DNA of 32,000 nucleotides from Kiritimatiella glycovorans (lineage in GTDB: Bacteria; Verrucomicrobiota; Kiritimatiellia; Kiritimatiellales; Kiritimatiellaceae). Both the position numbers and the translations under genes were made by a program. The notes under the pieces are model-generated. The model worked only from the letters and a program-made list of their open reading frames with translations. It did no database searches and was not told the origin of the DNA. This document shows, piece after piece, positions 23,169 to 32,000 of the stretch (positions within the stretch are counted from its first letter, which is position 1; each line of letters begins with the position of its first letter). Location of the stretch: positions 990,001 through 1,022,000 of the forward strand of contig NZ_CP010904.1 of the NCBI RefSeq assembly GCF_001017655.1, given 5' to 3'.

Positions 23169-23707
23169 GATCCCTCCTCCGCATCCTCATCCGTGCCGGC
23201 GCGCAGCTCCGCCCACTCCTCCGCCGCGAAGAGCGCGATAAAGCATCCGCTGACCGGCAGGGCGAGGTAGAGCCACGACATCGGCATGGCCAGCGCCGCC
23301 GACTGCTGGCCCGTCAGGATGTTCAGGTGCACGATTCTGATTCCGCCGACGATCATCGCGCCGACGGCGAACAGGAAGACCACGGCGCTGGTAAACAGGG
23401 CCGCCCGGCGGCGGTGCCGGGCCGGAAGCTTCCCGGCGAAGTAGTCCAGCCCGAGATGCGCGCGGCGGGCGTAGGCGACCGCCGCGCCGAGCAGCGCGGT
23501 CCAGGTCATCAGAAACACCGCGAGCTCGTCGGTCCATGAACTCGGCGCCCGCAGGACGTAACGCGAGAGCACCTGCCAGAGTACGTCCAGCACAAGCACC
23601 AGCATCAGGACGATCACGGTTCGTTCGAGCGTTGCGACCAGCGCGTCGCGCAGTCTGCGATGCCAGGGGCGCCGAGCGCCCCCCGCCTCAGTAGCTTCGG
23701 ATGTCAT
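23165..23707 (-). CDS. dctQ: TRAP transporter small permease subunit
   Basis: 180 aa with four hydrophobic helices, including WTDELAVFLMTWTALLGAAVAYARRAHLGLDYF. Lies between dctP and dctM. Confidence 0.85.
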   Translation of the reverse strand: MTSEATEAGGARRPWHRRLRDALVATLERTVIVLMLVLVLDVLWQVLSRYVLRAPSSWTDELAVFLMTWTALLGAAVAYARRAHLGLDYFAGKLPARHRRRAALFTSAVVFLFAVGAMIVGGIRIVHLNILTGQQSAALAMPMSWLYLALPVSGCFIALFAAEEWAELRAGTDEDAEEGS

Positions 23708-24671
23708 CGATCAGCGCTCCCAGTCTGGTGCCGCGGTACTGCTCCTGTACGGCGCGGCCGCGTTCCATGAACGGACCGCGGTCGGGCCGGACGATCTCCA
23801 CGCCCTCCTCGCGCAGGGCCTCCAGCGATTGTTTCGTGTGTTCCGCCCACAGTTTCCGTTGAAAGCGCGACGACTCCTGCGCCACGCGTTCAATCAGGTC
23901 CCGGTCTTCGGCATCGAGCCGACGCCAGCGTGCCGGGCTCATGAGGAGGAGATCGGGGATGCGGAAGTGCCGGTCTAGCGAGTAGTACGGGCAGACTTCG
24001 TAATGGCGCGAGGTGTAGAAACTGGGGGGATTGTTTTCCGCGCCGTCGACCACCCCCTGTTGAAGCGCGGTGTAAAGTTCGCCCCACGAGATCGGGGTCG
24101 GCGTCGCGCCGAGCGCCCGGACCCCCTGCATGCAGACCCGGCTCTGCATGACGCGGATCTTCATCCCGTCGAGATCTGCGGGAGTGCGGATGATCCGGTC
24201 GCGGGTATAAAAACTGCGGCTGCCCGCGTCGTAAAAACACAGGCCCCGGAGATACACGCTTTTCCCCGCCTCCAGGATCCGTTGTCCGACGTCCCCCTCG
24301 AGCACACGCCAGTAATGCTCCTCGTTCCTGAAGAGATAGGGCACGCTGAACACCCCCATCTCGGGGATGAACCCCTCAAGCGTCGCCGCCGAACTGACCG
24401 TCAGATCGAGAATCCCCATCTGGACCTGTTCGATGCATTCGCGCGAGCTTCCGAGCTGACTGTTCGGCCGGATCTCCAGCCGGACCCGGCCGCCGCTTTC
24501 TTCCGCGAGCCGCCGCTGCATGAACTCCGCCGCCTGATGAATCGGATGAGACACGTCGAGCGGGTGCGCCATACGAAGCGTGATCGTGCGCGGGGCATCG
24601 CGTGTGCAGCCGCAGAAAACGAGCCCCGCGATCCCTGCGCAAGCGAGCACGGCGAAGCTTCGTTTCATCAT
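23688..24671 (-). CDS. dctP: TRAP transporter substrate-binding protein, probable lipoprotein
   Basis: Start MMKRSFAVLACAGIAGLVFCGC (ATG at 24671). DctP-type segments follow (VYLRGLCFYDAGSRSFYT, IRVMQS, GVVDGAENN). The 526-aa track version extends into repeat DNA. Confidence 0.85.
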   Translation of the reverse strand: MMKRSFAVLACAGIAGLVFCGCTRDAPRTITLRMAHPLDVSHPIHQAAEFMQRRLAEESGGRVRLEIRPNSQLGSSRECIEQVQMGILDLTVSSAATLEGFIPEMGVFSVPYLFRNEEHYWRVLEGDVGQRILEAGKSVYLRGLCFYDAGSRSFYTRDRIIRTPADLDGMKIRVMQSRVCMQGVRALGATPTPISWGELYTALQQGVVDGAENNPPSFYTSRHYEVCPYYSLDRHFRIPDLLLMSPARWRRLDAEDRDLIERVAQESSRFQRKLWAEHTKQSLEALREEGVEIVRPDRGPFMERGRAVQEQYRGTRLGALIDDIRSY

Positions 24672-24874
24672 AGCGTCGGGTCCCGAGGCCAATATCATGA
24701 TCTTTATGGTTTGAGACAATCGATTCGTTAGGGACCGTATCGCATTCTCCGTCGATCGGCAACCCTGAGCGGCACGGGTGATCCCGTCTGCCGGCGAGCA
24801 CGGGAACGTGTTTGGAAAGGGGATCTCACGGATTACAGAGGGGGGCACGAATGCAGTTGTCTGGAGAGCGACGG

Positions 24875-24900
24875 GATATGGCGCGAGGACGCGCCATATC
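24875..24900. other. Perfect 11-bp inverted repeat with 4-nt spacer
   Basis: GATATGGCGCG-AGGA-CGCGCCATATC read directly. It lies about 200 bp upstream of dctP. No T-tract follows on either strand. Confidence 0.8.
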
Positions 24901-24956
24901 TCGCGCCTCATGCGGGGCGTTCGGCAGGCGACCGGAGAAATCGGGAAGTGGAAACG

Positions 24957-25080
24957 GGAAACGGGGTCTAACCCCCGCAAGCTCGTACTCAGCGAAGTGG
25001 TACTCGTACTCGAATTCCTTGAATCGGGGGATGGGATCGCGCCTTCGGCGCTCCGGGTACGCGTACCGAGTACGAGTACG
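24957..25080 (+). repeat. Nested-hairpin repeat element, module 1, copy B, with left flank GAAACGGGGTCTAACC
   Basis: 24982-25078 aligns to 4847-4943. The left flank 24957-24982 resembles 26190-26215. Confidence 0.85.
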
Positions 25081-25120
25081 GATTCCGTTCCCCCCTTCAA
25101 CCAACCTTCATGCTCTTCAT

Positions 25121-25161
25121 GTGAGGGTAGGGATTCTGCTGGACAGCAGAAGGCCGTCCGC
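25121..25161 (-). repeat. 41-nt repeat module 2, copy B, inverted relative to copy A
   Basis: GTGAGGGTAGGGATTCTGCTGGACAGCAGAAGGCCGTCCGC is the reverse complement of 4958-4998 with 2 mismatches. Confidence 0.85.
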
Positions 25162-25290
25162 AAACGAGCGGCGCGCTTAGCCTGTCCGCCGAAGGCATAA
25201 AGGGCCGAAGGCGGAGAGATCGCGCCCTGCACGGAAATCGCAAAGATGAATGAGAAGAGCACAGGCAAAGAGATCGTGCGTTCTCTCTTA

Positions 25291-25436
25291 CGTTCGTAGT
25301 AGGCCCGCAGGCCTGCGAAGCAGGGCCAGGGCCGTTATCTTTCACGCGCCTGGCCTGCCGGGGGCAGACTTGCGGCGCTACTACGAACGGTATCACGCGC
25401 CTTGGCCCTTCGGGCCTTGCGGCGCTACTACGAACG
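25291..25436. repeat. Three copies of a ~45-nt unit ending in CTACTACGAACG: one inverted (25291-25333) and two tandem direct (25343-25389, 25394-25436)
   Basis: CGTTCGTAGTAG at 25291 is the reverse complement of CTACTACGAACG at 25378 and 25425. Both direct copies start CACGCGCC(T)TGGCC and contain TTGCGGCGCTACTACGAACG. Copy c has a GGCCC-TTC-GGGCC hairpin. Confidence 0.8.
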
Positions 25437-25575
25437 TTTGTGGTGAATCCCCATCCCGTCTCTTCCCCGAACGGCTCCGCCACAAAAATCTGCGAAGAAC
25501 CGAAAGACTGGCTAATATTGTATTCGGACAGCAGAATGAGATTGACGTCAGCGGGTCGAGTAGTAGCATGGTGGT

Positions 25576-25806
25576 ATGAAAGTCAAGACATCCATCACAC
25601 TGTCGGGCGAGGTGCTTGGTATGATTGACAAGCACCACGCGGAATTCCGGAGTCGATCGGAGTTTCTCGAACGCGCCGCAAGGGCCTTCCTGGCGCACCT
25701 CGCTAAAACAGAAGCTGAGCGCCGTGATCTGGAGATCATCAACCGGAATGCCGACGAGCTGAACGCGGAGGCGGAGGACGTGCTGGCCTACCAGGTGGCG
25801 CTGTGA
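25576..25806 (+). CDS. Ribbon-helix-helix (CopG-like) antitoxin
   Basis: 76 aa. [39 protein letters not shown] is a typical RHH N-terminus, followed by an acidic C-terminal tail. GTGA overlap with the downstream MazF/PemK-family toxin gene. Confidence 0.75.
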
Positions 25807-26135
25807 GGCGCGGCGAACTCTATCGAGTCAAGCGCCCCTCCACCCGCGATCCCCGCAGGTTCCGCATCTTTGCCGTGGTAAGCCGACAAGTGCTGATCGA
25901 GTCACGGTTCTCAACGGTCATCTGCGCCCCGGTCTACACAGCGTACGAGGGGCTCACGACGCAAGTGCCCGTCGGTACGGATGAAGGGATGAAGCACGAC
26001 TGCGGCATCCATTGCGACGAACTCGTGAGCATCCCGAAAGCCATGCTGACCGACTTCGTCAGCACGCTTCCTCGGGAGAAAATTCTCCGATTGGACGAGG
26101 CGCTGAGAACCGCACTCGAACTTCACAACGACTGA
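25803..26135 (+). CDS. mazF: MazF/PemK-family type II toxin (endoribonuclease)
   Basis: 110 aa. The product reads [12 protein letters not shown]...[17 protein letters not shown]...VICAPVYT...[28 protein letters not shown], matching the RGdi..v...P.vvvS...n...v.v.P.T...dqi.tvdk pattern. Confidence 0.8.
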
Positions 26136-26189
26136 GGCCCGAACAAGGCGCTGCTCACCTTCAACTTGACCGCGGACGGTCAAAATAAA

Positions 26190-26215
26190 GAAACGGGGTC
26201 TGACCGCGTAAGCTG
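26190..26215 (+). repeat. Partial copy of the module-1 left flank
   Basis: GAAACGGGGTCTGACCGCGTAAGCT compared with GAAACGGGGTCTAACCCCCGCAAGCT at 24957-24982. The hexamer-arm hairpin is absent here. Confidence 0.55.
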
Positions 26216-26509
26216 TGCGATCTTGCTCCCATGCCATTGAAAAGAAGGGCGGATGGATTGATCCAGTTACGGCAGGGAGAATGGCTCTTGACTATCTTGC
26301 GGCGGACGGGAGGGTGGAGCAAAACACTCGACAGATGTCTCTACAGAGAGAACCTGTGAGATGGCGAACAACCATCGACTCGTACGTTTCAAACCGCGCC
26401 GCTTCGCGTCCCTGTCTGACACAACGGTCACGCGTGCCGTGGGCCCTGAAATCGAAATGACAAAACGCCCCGTTGCTGGTACTTTCGATGCAAATGGGAG
26501 AAGTCGATC

Positions 26510-26734
26510 ATGACGTATCTGAGTGACCGAATCACAATCGATCCCGAGCAATGCGGGGGACGGCCCTGTGTTCGCGGCATGCGTATCTGCGTGACGGATG
26601 TGCTCGATCTCTACTCGGCAGGTCTGAACGCGAACCAGATTCTCGAAGAGATGCCCCATCTGGAAGATGCGGATCTTAAGGCTTGTCTTCAGTACGCGTC
26701 CAAGCGTATTGACCACCCGGTACTCGCAGCATGA
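26510..26734 (+). CDS. DUF433-domain protein (antitoxin-like partner of DUF5615 PIN-like proteins)
   Basis: ITIDPEQCGGRPCVRGMRICVTDVLDLYSAGLNANQILEEMPHLEDADLKACLQYA matches the DUF433 signature I.idP.icgGkPcirGtRipv..il..l..G.s..eil..yP.l...di.aal.ya. Confidence 0.8.
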   Translation: MTYLSDRITIDPEQCGGRPCVRGMRICVTDVLDLYSAGLNANQILEEMPHLEDADLKACLQYASKRIDHPVLAA

Positions 26735-26880
26735 CCATCTGGATTGATGCCCAGCTTTCGCCTTCCCTGGCGAACTGGATCACGGACACGTTCAGCATCC
26801 CGGCGCAAGCTATTCGACTTCGAAGAACTTTTCATGCGGAACGCCGCATACGGGGCATTTTTCCGGCGGCTGGCCCTTGA
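26731..26880 (+). pseudogene. Truncated DUF5615 (PIN-like) toxin remnant; only about the first 28 codons are family-like
   Basis: Has an ATGA overlap with the DUF433 stop. MTIWIDAQLSPSLANWITDTFSIPAQAIRL resembles the N-terminus M.iWiDAqLsP.lA.Wit.tfgi.a.alRdlGLrdA of DUF5615 proteins, as I recall them. From about 26810 the frame runs antisense through the rubrerythrin 3' end and stops after 49 aa, against about 110 aa expected. Confidence 0.5.
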
Positions 26881-27310
26881 CGGTATTGCCGCAGACTTCG
26901 CAGACGAAAATCTTCTCTTCGCCGAGATCGCTGCCGTCCCGGACCGCCTCCAGCGCCTCGGAGTAGAGCCCGTGATGGATTTCCTCGACCTTGAGCGCGT
27001 GGTTGAACGACCGCTCCGCCGCCTTGTTTCCCTCTTCCTGCGCCTCGCGGAGAAATTTCGGATACATCTCCTGGAATTCAAATCCTTCGCCCTCAATTGC
27101 GGACTGCAGGTTATCGGCGGTGGAGTTGATGCCGCCCATGACGCGGAAGTGCGCGTGGGCATGTACGGTTTCCGCTGCAGCCGCGGCGCGGAAAAGCTTT
27201 GCGACCTGCGGCTTGCCCTCCGCATCCGCCTTTTTCGCGAACGCGAGATACATCCGGTTCGCCTGGCTTTCACCGCCGAAGGCCTCTTTGAGATTGTCCA
27301 TCGTCGACAT
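26810..27310 (-). CDS. rbr: Rubrerythrin
   Basis: GGGAGGA precedes ATG 27310. The product reads MSTMDNLKEAFGGESQANRMYLAFAKKADAEG...ETVHAHAHF...EGEGFEFQEMYPKF...EEIHHGLY, giving the diiron E/ExxH ligands. A C-terminal rubredoxin-like CEVCG...CPVCG follows. 166 aa. Confidence 0.9.
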   Translation of the reverse strand: MSTMDNLKEAFGGESQANRMYLAFAKKADAEGKPQVAKLFRAAAAAETVHAHAHFRVMGGINSTADNLQSAIEGEGFEFQEMYPKFLREAQEEGNKAAERSFNHALKVEEIHHGLYSEALEAVRDGSDLGEEKIFVCEVCGNTVKGQPPEKCPVCGVPHEKFFEVE

Positions 27311-27324
27311 GATATTCCTCCCTG

Positions 27325-27344
27325 GATGATGATGACTCATTAAC
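27325..27344. promoter_or_regulatory. Candidate Fur-family (PerR/Fur) operator upstream of rubrerythrin
   Basis: GATGATGATGACTCATTAAC compared with the E. coli Fur box GATAATGATAATCATTATC gives 16 of 19 matches if one extra nucleotide is allowed. It lies 15-34 nt upstream of the rbr start. This is a by-eye match only. Confidence 0.3.
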
Positions 27345-27488
27345 GCACTTATTAGGCATCTTACGTTGAACCTTCGGGTGAAGAAAAGCTCCGTGTGTGT
27401 ATAATCCGGCTGGCGCGAACGGGAAGATGGTTCTCCGGGAGACAGGCGCCGCAGGCTCGGAAAACGCGAAACGAACATCAGGAAATCT

Positions 27489-30400
27489 ATGGACCGTCCC
27501 GTGAATGCCGATCCCATGACACCGATGCAGCAGGGCATGCTGTACGATTCCCTCTCCGCACCCGGCTCCGGCTTCTATCTTCAACAGCTCGTGGTTACCT
27601 TCGAGGCTCCGCTGGACCGCGACGCCCTGAAGCGGGCATGGGATGAGGTCGCCGGACGACATGAGATCCTGAGAGCCTCGTGTCGATGGACGGGGGAGTG
27701 CGCCCCGAGGCTTCAGTTTGAGGAGGGCATTGAGACGGCCCTGGAAGACGCGGACGGTGCACCGGATGCGGCATTTCTGGAAAAGGACCGGCGGCGCGGC
27801 TTCGATCCTTCAAAGGCGCCGTTATGGCGCGTGACGCTGTTTCCGTTGCACGCCCCCGCAACCCTGGTATGGACCTTTCACCATCTGCTCCTCGACGGAC
27901 GCTCGCACACCCTCATTCTCGACGAGCTCCTCGAGGCCTATGCGGCGATCCGTGCCGGGCGTGCGCCGCAATTTGTGTCGGCCGCCTCTTTCCGGCCGTA
28001 CCTGCAGTGGCTTGCGGGAGAACCTGAGGCCGCTGCGGCTGAATTCTGGTGCGATCGGCTTCCCGAGGAGGTGGTGCCCGCATCGCTGCTCCCGCCCGGT
28101 CTTCCGGAACCCCCGGGTGACGAGGGATGGTATGTCCACCGTGAGAGGGTGCTCAGCGAGGAGACCGGCGCGGAAGTGCATCGCGCCGCGGCGTGGTTCG
28201 GGGTTACGACCAACACCTTGTTTCAGGCGGTCTGGGCGCTTCTCCTGCGGTGGTACAGTGAAGAAGACGCACTTGTATTCGGAGTGACCCGCGCGTGCCG
28301 CCACTGGCGGGGCGAACAGGCTGATACCGCCGCCGGGCTTTTTGCGAACACCACGCCGTTTCCTGTGCGAATAGACCCCGTCGCACCGCTGGGCCCGTGG
28401 CTGGCGGCACTGCGAGCGCAGCAGGTCGAAATGCGTGCGCGTGAACACGATGGGTTGACGCGTATTCGCGAATGGACGGGGAGAACGTCCACCGTTCCTC
28501 TCTTCAAGGCCCTGCTCGTGGTCGAGGGATACGATCTTACGGAACGATTCAGAACGCGGTGGAACGCTGAAGTTGAATTGCACGAGAAACCGAACCTGCT
28601 CACGCTCGGGGTCTACGACGGGTCATGTATTCGGCTCAGCCTCGACGCGCCCGCGGAGATCTACCCCGAGGCTCAGGTTGACCGCTTTCTCGAACAGATC
28701 GAAACCGGACTGAGGAGCCTCGCTCGTTCCGACCCGTCCCGCCTGCTCGATGAGATTGAGTTTGTCTCTCCGGATGAGCGAAGCCTGCAGATCGATCAGT
28801 GGTCCGGGATCGAAGCGCCGTATCCCGACGACTGCGCCGTGCACCGGCTGATCGAGGCGCAGGCGCGAAAGACCCCGGACGCGGTGGCGGTCGAGACTCC
28901 GGACGAGCAGATCAGCTACCGTGAGCTGGATGCGCGCGCGAACCGGCTTGCACGGGTGCTTTTGCGGCTCGGCATCCGCAAAGGGGCCCGCGTCGGGGTC
29001 TGTCTGGATGCGCGCGCTGAACTCGATCTGGCGATGCTCGCAATCTTCAAGGCTGGCGCGGTGTACGTGCCGCTGGATCCGGGGAATCCAGCCGACCGCC
29101 TGACGTTTTATCTGGAGGACAGCGGCGCGGAGCTGGTGCTCACCTGCGCCGAACTTCGCGCGACGGTTCCGGACGTCGGGTGTCCGGTCCTGGAGATCGG
29201 CCTGGAGGGGCCTGAGGGTGAGGACGAATCGGTGGAGCCCCCGGAGGTCGCGGCCGGTCCCGACGATGACGCGTACATACTCTACACCTCGGGTTCGACC
29301 GGCACGCCTAAAGGGGTGATCACCGAGCACGGCGGGCTGTGCAACTGTGCGGAGGCCGAAATCCGGCTCTACGGGCTCGGGCCGGGGGACCGCGTGCTCC
29401 AGTTCTCCACGCCAAGCTTCGACGTCTCAATTTACGAGGTCATGATGGCCCTGACCGTCGGCGCGACGCTGAGAACCGGGACGGCGGCGGATCTCGTGCC
29501 GGGTCCGGCGTTGACGAAGTTTCTGAAACGGCAGCGGATCAGTGCGGTCACCCTGACCCCGACGGTATTGCGGGCCATGCCCTTTGACCCGCTGCCCGAC
29601 CTTCGGGTGCTCGTCTGCTGCGGCGAAGCATGTCCGTCGGATCTCCTCGACGCCTGGGCCGGGGGACGACGTTTCTTCAATGCCTACGGCCCCACGGAGG
29701 TGACGATCTGGTCGACGAGCGACGAGTGCGTTCCCGGCGAAAAACGGCCGTCGATCGGACGGCCGATCCCCAATCTGCGCGTTTATGTGCTCGATGCACA
29801 CCGCCGCCCCGTCCCGGCCGGCGCACCGGGCGAACTCTATATCGGCGGGGCAGGGGTGGGGCGCGGGTACCTCAACCGCCCCGAGCGCACGGCGGAGCAT
29901 TTTCTCCCTGACCCTTTTGACGGACGTGAAGGGGCGAGGATGTACCGCACCGGCGATAAGGTTCGGTATCTTCCCGACGGTCGCATCGATTTTATCCGGC
30001 GCATGGATCGTCAGGTCAAGATTCGCGGCGTGCGCGTGGAACTGGGCGAGATTGAAAGTGTCATCCGGCGGCATCCGGGTGTGGATGATGCCGTTGTTCT
30101 TTTGTGCGACGGGCTTCCGTATGGCTACATCACGGCGGCGGGGGATGCGGCGCCCGAGGATGCTGTGCTTCGCGCCTACCTCGTGGAGCATCTTCCGCGT
30201 GTTCTGATCCCCGTGTCGTTTACGGCGCTGTCCGGCTTTCCCCGGACGCTGAGCGGGAAGGTGGACCGTAAGGCCCTGGAGCGCGGGGCGTTTGAGTCGG
30301 TTGCGCAGGACGGTGCCGCAGAACGCGCGGGGCCGGCGCGAGCGGCGACAGAGGACGAGTTGCAGAGGCTGGATACGTGGAACCTCGAGGCGCAGCGGCC

Positions 30401-32000
30401 CCGCGTGGAGGGAGAGACGGCGGACCGCCTGTTTGATATCGCATGCCTGATGTACCCGGACCGTGTGGCATTACGGCAGGAGGGACGCTCCCTGAGCTAT
30501 CGTGAGCTGGGCCGCCTGGCGAACCGGATCGCGCTTCGGTTGCGCAGGGAGGGAATAGGGGCTGAGGATCCGGTACTGATCTGTGGACGGCGCTCCATCG
30601 AAGCGCTCGTGGCTATGCTGGCGGTCGTGAAGGCCGGGGCGACGTATGTCCCGGTGGATGCCGGAGTACCGGAACGTCGCATGCGCGAGGCGTGCGGGGA
30701 TTGCGGGGCGAGGGCCGTGTTCTGCCCGGAGGCGATCCGGAATGTTTTTGATGCGTGCGCGCTGTGGCTCGATCTGGACGATCCGGAAGGCGAGGGCCGC
30801 GGGGAAGGTTCTCATCCGCCGGAGGTGAAGCCGGATGATCGTCGCCGCGCGTACATCATCTACACCTCCGGGTCAACCGGTCGTCCCAAGGGAGTCGAAA
30901 TCGAACACCGCTCGCTCGTCAACCTCATCCGTTTTTACGTGGAGCGGCTTGAACTCACGGAAAAGGACCGGAGCACCATGCTGGCGAGCATCGCCTTCGA
31001 TGCCTCGGTTGCCGACGGGTGGCCATACCTGTGCTGCGGGGCGTCGGTGTACATTCCGCCCGACGAAAAGCTCCTCGATCCTCCCGCGCTCTTCCGGTGG
31101 ATCGGAGAGGAGGGGATCACGGTGTCCTTCGTGCCGACGGCGCTCGCGGAACGGCTTCTCGAATCGGATCTGTCACCGAAGACCTCGCTGCGGTATCTGC
31201 TGACGGGAGGCGACCGGCTTCGCGTCCGGCCCGCGGCGGGGTTGTCATTCGGGGTGATCAACACCTACGGCCCGACCGAGAACACGGTCGACAGCACGTG
31301 GGATGTCGTCCGCCCCGGCGGAGAAGAGGAGGGTCCGCCTCCGATCGGTCGTCCGATAGCCAATGTAGGGGTCTATGTGCTCGACCCGGACGGCGTGAGA
31401 GTCGCCCCCGGGGAAGAGGGTGAACTGGTGCTGGGGGGGCGGAACGTCGCGCGCGGCTACCTCGGGCGTGGAGACCTTACCCGTGAACGTTTTCCGGTCG
31501 ATCCGTTCTCCGGGGATGGGGCGCGGATGTACCGGACGGGCGACCGGGTACGGTTCCGGGACGACGGGCGACTCGATTTCCTCGGGCGCAAAGATGATCA
31601 GGTGCAGATCCGGGGCCATCGTGTAGAGCCGGGCGAGGTCGAGCATCTCCTGCGCGAAACCTCGGGAGTACGGGACGCTGCGGTGCGCCCGATGGAGGAG
31701 GACGGCGCGGTAACCGCGCTGGCGGCGTGGGTGGTGCCGGAACGACCCGGGGCCGCGGAAACCCTGACGGCGGCGCGTGAGGCGGCTCGTGCAGAACTTC
31801 CGGCCTACATGGTTCCCGCGGCCTGGGCGATGCTGGATGAACTGCCTCGGAACGCCTCGGGTAAAGTCGACCGTGAGGCGCTGCCCGCGCCGAACGTGTT
31901 CGAATCGGCGGGGGCGGGAGAGGTTCCGGCGACAGAGCGGGAACGCGAGCTGGCCGCGGTGTGGGAGGAAGTACTCGATGTGGGCCGCATCGGACGCGAC
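27489..32000 (+). CDS. Non-ribosomal peptide synthetase, 5' 4.5 kb: C - A - A - start of T; continues past the window end
   Basis: Not in the ORF track because there is no stop in the window. Frame 0 is open for 1504 codons by my reading, and no track ORF occupies that frame. C domain: MTPMQQGMLYDSL, HHLLLDG (27879-27899). A1: ISYRELDARANRLA, TSGSTGTPKG (29286-29315), NAYGPTE, YRTGD, KIRGVRVELGEIE, SGKVDRKAL (30252-30278). A2: LSYRELGRLANRIA, TSGSTGRPKG (30864-30893), NTYGPTE, YRTGD, QIRGHRVEPGEVE, SGKVDREAL (31857-31883). ERELAAVWEEVLDVGRIGRD is the start of a carrier domain. Confidence 0.9.
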   Translation, partial: MDRPVNADPMTPMQQGMLYDSLSAPGSGFYLQQLVVTFEAPLDRDALKRAWDEVAGRHEILRASCRWTGECAPRLQFEEGIETALEDADGAPDAAFLEKDRRRGFDPSKAPLWRVTLFPLHAPATLVWTFHHLLLDGRSHTLILDELLEAYAAIRAGRAPQFVSAASFRPYLQWLAGEPEAAAAEFWCDRLPEEVVPASLLPPGLPEPPGDEGWYVHRERVLSEETGAEVHRAAAWFGVTTNTLFQAVWALLLRWYSEEDALVFGVTRACRHWRGEQADTAAGLFANTTPFPVRIDPVAPLGPWLAALRAQQVEMRAREHDGLTRIREWTGRTSTVPLFKALLVVEGYDLTERFRTRWNAEVELHEKPNLLTLGVYDGSCIRLSLDAPAEIYPEAQVDRFLEQIETGLRSLARSDPSRLLDEIEFVSPDERSLQIDQWSGIEAPYPDDCAVHRLIEAQARKTPDAVAVETPDEQISYRELDARANRLARVLLRLGIRKGARVGVCLDARAELDLAMLAIFKAGAVYVPLDPGNPADRLTFYLEDSGAELVLTCAELRATVPDVGCPVLEIGLEGPEGEDESVEPPEVAAGPDDDAYILYTSGSTGTPKGVITEHGGLCNCAEAEIRLYGLGPGDRVLQFSTPSFDVSIYEVMMALTVGATLRTGTAADLVPGPALTKFLKRQRISAVTLTPTVLRAMPFDPLPDLRVLVCCGEACPSDLLDAWAGGRRFFNAYGPTEVTIWSTSDECVPGEKRPSIGRPIPNLRVYVLDAHRRPVPAGAPGELYIGGAGVGRGYLNRPERTAEHFLPDPFDGREGARMYRTGDKVRYLPDGRIDFIRRMDRQVKIRGVRVELGEIESVIRRHPGVDDAVVLLCDGLPYGYITAAGDAAPEDAVLRAYLVEHLPRVLIPVSFTALSGFPRTLSGKVDRKALERGAFESVAQDGAAERAGPARAATEDELQRLDTWNLEAQRPRVEGETADRLFDIACLMYPDRVALRQEGRSLSYRELGRLANRIALRLRREGIGAEDPVLICGRRSIEALVAMLAVVKAGATYVPVDAGVPERRMREACGDCGARAVFCPEAIRNVFDACALWLDLDDPEGEGRGEGSHPPEVKPDDRRRAYIIYTSGSTGRPKGVEIEHRSLVNLIRFYVERLELTEKDRSTMLASIAFDASVADGWPYLCCGASVYIPPDEKLLDPPALFRWIGEEGITVSFVPTALAERLLESDLSPKTSLRYLLTGGDRLRVRPAAGLSFGVINTYGPTENTVDSTWDVVRPGGEEEGPPPIGRPIANVGVYVLDPDGVRVAPGEEGELVLGGRNVARGYLGRGDLTRERFPVDPFSGDGARMYRTGDRVRFRDDGRLDFLGRKDDQVQIRGHRVEPGEVEHLLRETSGVRDAAVRPMEEDGAVTALAAWVVPERPGAAETLTAAREAARAELPAYMVPAAWAMLDELPRNASGKVDREALPAPNVFESAGAGEVPATERERELAAVWEEVLDVGRIGRD

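Follow-up and report, generated by a model that had tools for sequence, protein, structure and literature searches.

In this study, we analysed a window of 32,000 nucleotides of Kiritimatiella glycovorans DNA (contig NZ_CP010904.1, positions 990,001 to 1,022,000), and found that the gene at its 3' end is the 5' part of a stand-alone, single-carrier nonribosomal peptide synthetase (NRPS) with the domain order C-A1-A2-T-TE. Here, two adenylation (A) domains follow a condensation (C) domain and stand directly next to each other, before a single carrier (T) domain and a thioesterase (TE) domain. As a rule, each adenylation domain of an NRPS is paired with its own carrier. The layout is rare, and the conserved C-A-A-T-TE family that shares it is hitherto uncharacterised. 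Judged from alignments, the tandem A-A layout appears to be ancestral to this small and diverged family of enzymes. We consider it somewhat probable that both A domains aminoacylate the single downstream T domain, and that the C and TE domains then process the loaded carrier.

To describe the gene, we translated the frame containing position 30252, which is open from the ATG at 27489 to the window end (1503 aa). With this fragment as the query, we recovered the full product, P0001 (1813 aa, 100% identity), encoded on a 2.95 Mb contig. The domain order of P0001 is C-A1-A2-T-TE, with the PP-binding and Thioesterase domains located after A2. In the window part of the protein, Pfam matched Condensation at residues 9-431, two AMP-binding stretches (E 8e-170) and two AMP-binding_C stretches, and the NCBIfam model AA-adenyl-dom matched twice. 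A custom A-domain hidden Markov model (HMM) placed A1 at residues 452-930 and A2 at residues 979-1465, leaving a gap of about 48-49 residues without a T domain. The features of the gene within the window are as follows.

27489..32000, + strand: 5' 4.5 kb of the NRPS gene, an open frame that runs past the window end (self match to P0001, Pfam domains).
27513..28781, + strand: condensation domain, residues 9-431, with the active-site motif HHLLLDG at residues 131-137 (Pfam PF00668, E 1.5e-52).
28782..28841, + strand: C-A1 linker, which includes SPDERSLQIDQWSG and aligns with canonical C-A linkers.
28842..30278, + strand: adenylation domain A1, residues 452-930, core motifs A1-A10 intact, code DVYTVCAIWK, without LPxP after A10 (HMM, Pfam, NCBIfam, motifs).
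30279..30341, + strand: variable spacer after A1, residues 931-951, ERGAFESVAQDGAAERAGPAR, without a carrier motif (poor conservation in the family, no Pfam match, AlphaFold pLDDT 29-49, where pLDDT is the predicted local distance difference test score).
30342..30422, + strand: C-A-type linker belonging to A2, residues 952-978, AATEDELQRLDTWNLEAQRPRVEGETAD (aligns with LTxxERxxLLxEWNxT..YP of family and generic C-A junctions; low-confidence predicted helix).
30423..31883, + strand: adenylation domain A2, residues 979-1465, core motifs A1-A10 intact, code DAAFLGTVDK, with LPAP (LPxP) after A10 (HMM, Pfam, NCBIfam, motifs).
31884..32000, + strand: A2-T linker and first helix of the sole T domain (ERELAAVWEEVLDVGRIGRD...), from a partial T-HMM match at residues 1508-1531 of the frame translation.

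The GGHS serine of the T domain and the TE domain lie beyond the window, and in P0001 they read FFDLGGHSL (T) and GFSYGG (TE). The TE domain belongs to PF00975, and its GFSYGG motif and the His of PGDH are conserved. The standard NRPS features are thus present, namely a C domain with HHxxxDG, an A domain (twice), and a TE domain with GxSxG and His. The HHxxxDG motif shows no variation across the tandem-A family, and the closest solved structures to A2 are the A domains of LgrA. In place of one T domain with GG(H/D)S per A domain, we found a single T domain, after A2. The protein is therefore an NRPS by every domain criterion except one carrier per A domain.

The earlier note on this DNA, made from the letters alone, had claimed that A1 ends with the A10 motif SGKVDRKAL at 30252-30278, that the next A domain starts about 48 residues later, and that the linker holds no carrier domain. 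All three claims were borne out. The codons at 30252-30278 are AGC GGG AAG GTG GAC CGT AAG GCC CTG, positions 30279-30422 encode ERGAFESVAQDGAAERAGPARAATEDELQRLDTWNLEAQRPRVEGETAD (48 aa), and RLFDIACLMYPDRVALRQEGRSLSYRELG begins at 30423, from where the A2 side of the junction reads RLFDIACLMYPDRVAL... Neither Pfam, nor a custom T-domain HMM, nor inspection for motifs revealed a T domain between A1 and A2. A carrier-HMM check of 30279-30423, set in advance as the test that could refute the claim, was run and came out negative. The 48-aa connector alone gave nothing against Pfam, even at E<=10, and Pfam PP-binding was absent from the window part of the protein. The T-domain HMM, built from about 160 T domains and run on all six frames of the whole window, found only one T domain, which begins at residue ~1480, after A2. 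On five relatives, the same model found exactly one T domain each, again after A2.

To define the connector, we aligned it with C-A1 junctions from within the family and with ten generic C-A junctions. The final 27-40 residues superpose on the canonical C-A linker LPLLTxxERxQLLxEWNxT...YP...HxLFExQ, and the first ~20 residues after A10 vary. The segment ELQRLDTWN, which had been likened to the xLLxxWN motif at the end of C domains, indeed aligns with the LTxxERxxLLxEWNxT...YP linkers of ordinary C-A junctions. By this alignment, the connector is no degenerate carrier. It is made up of ~20 variable residues and then a C-A-type linker of the standard kind, which is structurally part of A2. Normally, A10 is followed by an LPxP motif, through which the A domain is coupled to its T domain. 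This motif is missing behind A1 in 13/13 members, and is present behind A2 in three of the four clades. An AlphaFold2 model of the A1 subdomain, linker and A2, based on a five-sequence alignment, was poor (mean pLDDT 66, connector 29-49) and placed two tentative helices in the connector. The sole information taken from this model is that no compact domain is predicted there.

The same C-A-A-T-TE order, together with a T-less gap of 36-49 residues between A1 and A2, is shared by at least 13 diverged proteins (39-51% identity), whose sequences come from independent assemblies. The best matches (P0002 to P0007, P0009, P0040, P0052 and P0054) align with 97-100% of the query in one stretch, at 39-47% identity. 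They are 1760-1860 aa long, except for P0054, which has 2122 aa and one extra domain. The precomputed Pfam strings of the relatives' genes read Condensation, AMP-binding, AMP-binding_C, AMP-binding, AMP-binding_C, PP-binding, Thioesterase. A TE profile run against 1.84 billion cluster representatives independently added the members P0264 and P0295. Among the best 150 TE hits, only P0001, P0007, P0264 and P0295 belong to the family, and these searches suggest that the family is small at the 50% identity level. A search with a full-length family profile was dominated by three-module NRPSs and gave one addition, P0200. Scans of genome and metagenome contigs returned generic NRPS matches only, with at most 47% identity. 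When 565 A domains of 239 NRPS proteins were compared, an A-A gap of 36-49 residues occurred only in the tandem-A family and in the unrelated P0200.

A comparison with orthologues had been proposed for the presence of T-C at the junction, and all relatives showed the same T-less gap. Since the layout is common to a diverged family, it is neither an assembly error nor a recent deletion. The earlier note had also raised the collapse of NRPS repeats, which does occur in short-read assemblies. Here, repeat collapse has nothing to act on, as A1 and A2 have a protein identity of only 41% and their DNA holds no shared repeat of more than 128 nt at 71% identity. The gene also lies on a 2.95 Mb contig, and the junction recurs in independent NCBI, JGI, ENA and Logan assemblies. 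A recent in-frame deletion crippling a C-A-T-C-A-T-TE enzyme would fit with the C-A linker motif before A2, which shows that A2 once followed a C domain, but the 1813-aa frame is unbroken and purifying selection acts on all domains. We therefore regard an assembly artefact or a recent crippling deletion as extremely improbable. We also considered A1 and A2 as recent duplicates of each other, and this was ruled out by their 41% identity and by the observation that they are not nearest neighbours.

Of the two origins offered in the earlier note, the genuine A-A arrangement is the one supported, given at least 13 diverged proteins and selection on both A domains. The other, an in-frame T-C deletion, fails as a recent event, and an ancient one is a possible origin because the C-A linker is retained before A2. 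No undeleted C-A-T-C-A-T-TE orthologue was found in the searchable data, where the best two-module matches to the TE profile (e.g. P0240) have an unrelated C domain with 24% identity. An independent tandem A-A arrangement was found in P0200, a metagenomic NRPS of 3290 aa, at residues 593-1631, in an elongation module of a longer assembly line. Its junction consists of A10, ~25 residues, a C-A linker (LTPAERQRILYEWNDT), the second A domain and one T domain, with 48 residues between the A domains. Both of its A domains are intact, with codes for Thr (DFWNIGMVHK) and Ser (DVWHISLVDK), and LPxP is kept after the first A10. The P0200 A domains are not nearest neighbours of the family's A1 or A2, and their origin is therefore independent. 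In two other NRPSs, P0115 (Myxococcus sp., residues 972-1131) and P0169 (Corallococcus praedator, residues 982-1148), the order is A-T-[C-A linker]-A, and the C domain alone is absent. Losses that end exactly at the start of the C-A linker thus seem to be recurrent, and the three junctions speak modestly for a deletion as the route, if it took place long ago. Most likely, the layout of the tandem-A family arose once, either via loss of T-C from a two-module ancestor or via insertion of a [C-A linker + A] unit. By either route, the break falls on linker boundaries known to be prone to recombination.

To examine whether both A domains are intact, we inspected their motifs across the family. The claim that both keep A3, A5, A7, A8 and A10 was confirmed and extended, as all of the motifs A1-A10 were found in each. 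In every member, both A domains keep A3 (TSGxTGxPK), A4 with Asp235, A5 (YGPTE), A7 (YRTGD), A8 and the GK lysine of A10. In A1 of the window, A3 (YTSGSTGTPKG) and A10 (SGKVDRKAL) are intact. The C (HHxxxDG), T (GGxS) and TE (GxSxG, His) motifs are likewise intact across the family. Among 549 A domains, the nearest neighbours of family A1s are A1s and those of A2s are A2s, and neither ever appears in the lists of the other. Over 55 protein pairs, the pairwise identities of A1 and A2 correlate with r=0.95 (means 0.497 for A1 and 0.534 for A2), and the identity of A1 versus A2 across the family averages 0.36. The correlation and the neighbour lists indicate that A1 and A2 have co-diverged since the family ancestor.

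The ratio of nonsynonymous to synonymous substitution rates (dN/dS) was determined from the one pair with DNA, P0006 (L036) versus P0007 (L037). For this pair, the ratio is 0.105 for A1, the lowest of all domains, 0.17 for A2, 0.20 for C, 0.185 for T, 0.175 for TE and 0.29 for the linker. A1 is thus under purifying selection and not decaying. Judged from the residues they keep, A1 and A2 would both be catalytically competent for amino-acid activation.

Specificity codes were read at the Stachelhaus positions via HMM columns. The mapping was validated on other proteins that carry canonical codes for Thr, Ser, Gln, Leu, Phe, Gly and Val, and it recovered codes such as DFWNIGMVHK, DVWHISLVDK, DAQDLGVVDK, DAWFLGNVVK and DAWTVAAVCK. 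The A1 code of the window is DVYTVCAIWK. The family's A1 codes vary and are uniformly hydrophobic (e.g. DAFMLCIIWK, DGFLFGVVWK, DALFFGLVFK). The A2 code of the window, DAAFLGTVDK, is the same throughout three clades, and the fourth has DAAFCGSVDK in its place. At a match of at least 8/10, no A2 code was found among ~530 non-family A domains compared. Neither DVYTVCAIWK nor DAAFLGTVDK is of the Ser or Thr type, and Asp235 in both codes argues for alpha-amino acid substrates. The proposal that one of the A domains is non-canonical found no support, as both have canonical catalytic motifs and Asp235.

These data also bear on whether A1 is a catalytically dispensable relic or scaffold, with only A2 supplying the substrate and the enzyme behaving as an ordinary C-A-T-TE synthetase. 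The only characterised tandem A-A NRPSs act in this way, since the first A domain of PyrG is without the A3 motif and the catalytic lysine (PMC10510592), and AulA works without its first A domain (PMC5238615). The variable A1 pocket beside the invariant A2 pocket would agree with such a role. However, every A1 in the family keeps A3 (TSGxTGxPK), Asp235, A5, A7, A8 and the A10 Lys at 39-51% identity, its dN/dS is lower than that of any other domain, and it diverges at about the rate of A2. There is also no ketoreductase (KR) domain and no keto-acid-type pocket, unlike in PyrG and AulA. A dispensable A1 is therefore improbable.

We propose that A1 and A2 would load the one T domain in turn, and that the donor for the N-terminal C domain would not be encoded beside the gene: primary metabolism could supply an acyl donor, or another loaded copy of the enzyme could serve. 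The TE domain would release the product. It may also hold a unit as a way-station, in the manner of iterative C-A-T-TE enzymes, which would allow one carrier to give a product of two building blocks. Without a TE way-station or two enzyme copies, two alternative acyl-amino-acid products would be expected. P0200, with two intact A domains before one T domain and Thr and Ser codes, is an independent precedent for this arrangement. In a more specific version, both A domains would be active, differ in specificity and take turns in loading the one carrier, to give a hetero-dimeric product (a dipeptide, lipodipeptide or depsipeptide), through either a TE way-station or two enzyme copies. We put this version forward only tentatively, as it is rather unlikely in this exact form. 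If it is true, the A2 code DAAFLGTVDK would mark a new building block or product class. Our full-text literature searches on C-A-A-T, A-A-PCP (peptidyl carrier protein) and tandem or consecutive A domains turned up no characterised system with alternate-loading logic. To our knowledge, no characterised system loads one carrier alternately from two A domains.

Several points weigh against the loading of the T domain from both A domains. For every family member, we infer loading by A1 purely from sequence, and kept catalytic motifs are no proof of activity. A1 is not followed by the LPxP coupling motif, and the whole of A2 stands between A1 and the T domain. The AlphaFold model is too poor (mean pLDDT 66, linker <50) to inform on domain packing. 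The closest solved structures to the C domain are the C domains of PvdL (chain residues 562-1011) and McyB, with near-equal scores, so the PDB scores do not separate a starter from an elongation subtype. In addition, a discrete carrier, a phosphopantetheinyl transferase (PPTase) or a GNAT may be encoded downstream of the gene, as the carrier search covered the 27 kb upstream.

The last point concerns another way of using two A domains. A1 could load a discrete carrier in trans, which donates to the N-terminal C domain while A2 loads the cis T domain, giving a two-module dipeptide synthetase. ObaI is a precedent, with two A domains and a single PCP, and loading of a discrete aryl carrier protein (ArCP), ObaK, has been proposed for its extra A domain (PMC5490192). 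The absence of LPxP after A1 and its presence after A2 in three of the four clades would fit, as would the need of the N-terminal C domain for a donor from elsewhere. However, no other NRPS or biosynthetic gene and no discrete carrier was found in the 27 kb upstream within the window, and no second NRPS gene, PP-binding gene or T-HMM match was found in the +/-6-10 kb flanks of six relatives (P0003, P0004, P0006, P0007, P0121 and P0264). The small neighbouring open reading frames (ORFs) that we checked are not carriers. Moreover, the extra A domain of ObaI sits after the TE domain and is specific for an aryl acid, with its carrier inside the cluster. The earlier suggestion that one A domain loads a carrier in trans thus has no support so far from the upstream region and the flanks searched, and we consider it unlikely.

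The 27 kb upstream of the NRPS gene hold housekeeping genes such as ileS, lspA, miaA and hflX, a hybrid kinase gene, radC, an lpxA-like gene and others. Closer to the NRPS gene come a DctP gene, a gene for a PemK/MazF-type toxin preceded by a small ORF, a DUF433 gene and, in divergent orientation, a rubrerythrin gene. The toxin gene (25803-26135, PF02452) overlaps the 76-aa ORF at 25576-25806 by 4 nt, and the pair spans 25576-26135 on the + strand. The 76-aa ORF has no Pfam match and probably encodes the cognate antitoxin of a type II toxin-antitoxin pair. Over positions 25000-28000 the GC content is 0.565-0.60, compared with ~0.65 elsewhere in the window. This stretch holds the toxin gene, the DUF433 gene (26510-26734) and the rubrerythrin gene (26810-27310, - strand, divergent from the NRPS start), and the dip may mark the edge of an acquired segment that includes the NRPS gene. 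The 526-aa ORF at 23688-25268 (- strand) has the DctP domain (solute-binding protein of TRAP transporters) in residues 234-510 only. Its start probably lies much further in, and ~0.5 kb of apparently non-coding sequence would remain upstream of it.

In the relatives, P0006, P0007, P0052 and P0264 are encoded by solo genes with unrelated neighbours. A PPTase gene directly follows the NRPS gene in P0003 (L038), P0004 and P0121. The neighbours of P0003 and P0004 encode GT4 glycosyltransferases, hexapeptide acyltransferases and a Wzx-type flippase, and those of P0121 encode glycosyltransferases, hexapeptide transferases and a PMT_2-family protein. These neighbours point to a link of the PPTase clade with the modification of glycans or the envelope. 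A GNAT gene of PF13480 (Acetyltransf_6) overlaps the NRPS stop codon by 4 nt in the P0040 clade (L040, 5473-6549), and in P0054 a PF13480 GNAT is fused to the TE C-terminus (residues ~1760-2122). The GNAT-NRPS pairing is therefore a conserved functional link in the P0040/P0054 clade. If alternate loading is true, the coupled GNAT may in some lineages deliver the product to a glycan or another acceptor.

These neighbourhoods are also relevant to a further explanation of A1. Amide-forming A domains exist, for example streptothricin ORF19. A1 could likewise be a ligase of the free-standing type, whose aminoacyl-AMP is attacked directly by an amine, either that of the A2-loaded aminoacyl-S-T or a soluble or glycan-bound one, with no second carrier. 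This would account for two activated substrates on a one-carrier enzyme. Some members are located in glycan or exopolysaccharide gene clusters (GT4, hexapeptide transferases, Wzx), and others are fused or coupled to a PF13480 GNAT, which hints at a non-peptide acceptor. Nevertheless, the idea has no direct support, A1 keeps the A8 hinge and the residues of the thioester-forming conformation, and the glycan context is limited to one clade and absent from the window. We rate a ligase role of A1 as quite improbable.

If A1 and A2 both load the T domain, two adjacent A domains, intact and under purifying selection in a five-domain enzyme, are a natural example of a shared carrier. The system is compact (one gene plus a PPTase) and could be used to ask how a carrier visits two A domains. 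It is also of interest for NRPS engineering, since its junction coincides exactly with the A10 and C-A-linker boundaries. Odd NRPS architectures are in themselves not unexpected, and the function of this enzyme is a prediction from its sequence only.

Finally, we compared the window NRPS with known systems. SwrW has the order C-A-T-TE, and its TE domain can hold one unit while the carrier reloads. Like SwrW, the serratamolide NRPS (PMC3353980), and EntF (enterobactin), the window NRPS is a self-contained, stand-alone, single-carrier enzyme with an N-terminal C domain that would take its donor in trans, a T domain and a TE domain. However, SwrW and EntF contain a single A domain each and assemble acyl-Ser units into homo-oligomers, whereas the window NRPS has two A domains and no Ser/Thr code. 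P0200 shares the junction design, with both A domains intact and the second followed by one T domain, but it differs in its independent origin, its canonical Thr/Ser codes, the LPxP after the first A10 and its place inside a multi-module assembly line.

In the literature searches on tandem A domains described above, the only relevant precedents were PyrG, AulA and ObaI. ObaI (obafluorin) has the order C-A2-PCP-TE-MbtH-A1, and gives a product of two building blocks with only one cis carrier (PMC5490192). It resembles the window NRPS in having an N-terminal C domain, two A domains, a single cis PCP and a TE domain in one polypeptide. In contrast, A1 of the window NRPS stands between C and A2 and has Asp235 and a hydrophobic amino-acid-type code, and there is no MbtH domain. 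Furthermore, the carrier ObaK is encoded in the obafluorin cluster, whereas neither the 27 kb upstream in the window nor the flanks of six relatives showed a discrete carrier. PyrG (pyridomycin; PMC10510592) and AulA (auriculamide; PMC5238615) have adjacent A domains with one carrier downstream, and AulA activates an alpha-keto acid. The window NRPS is like them in having two directly adjacent A domains before a single T domain. However, its first A domain is not degenerate, as A3 and the A10 Lys are intact in all members and the dN/dS is 0.105. PyrG and AulA are coupled to a KR domain, and no KR appears in the Pfam lists of P0001 or its relatives. In addition, A2 of the window NRPS keeps Asp235 (DAAFLGTVDK) and is not a keto-acid-type A domain, and the window system is a solo C-A-A-T-TE gene.

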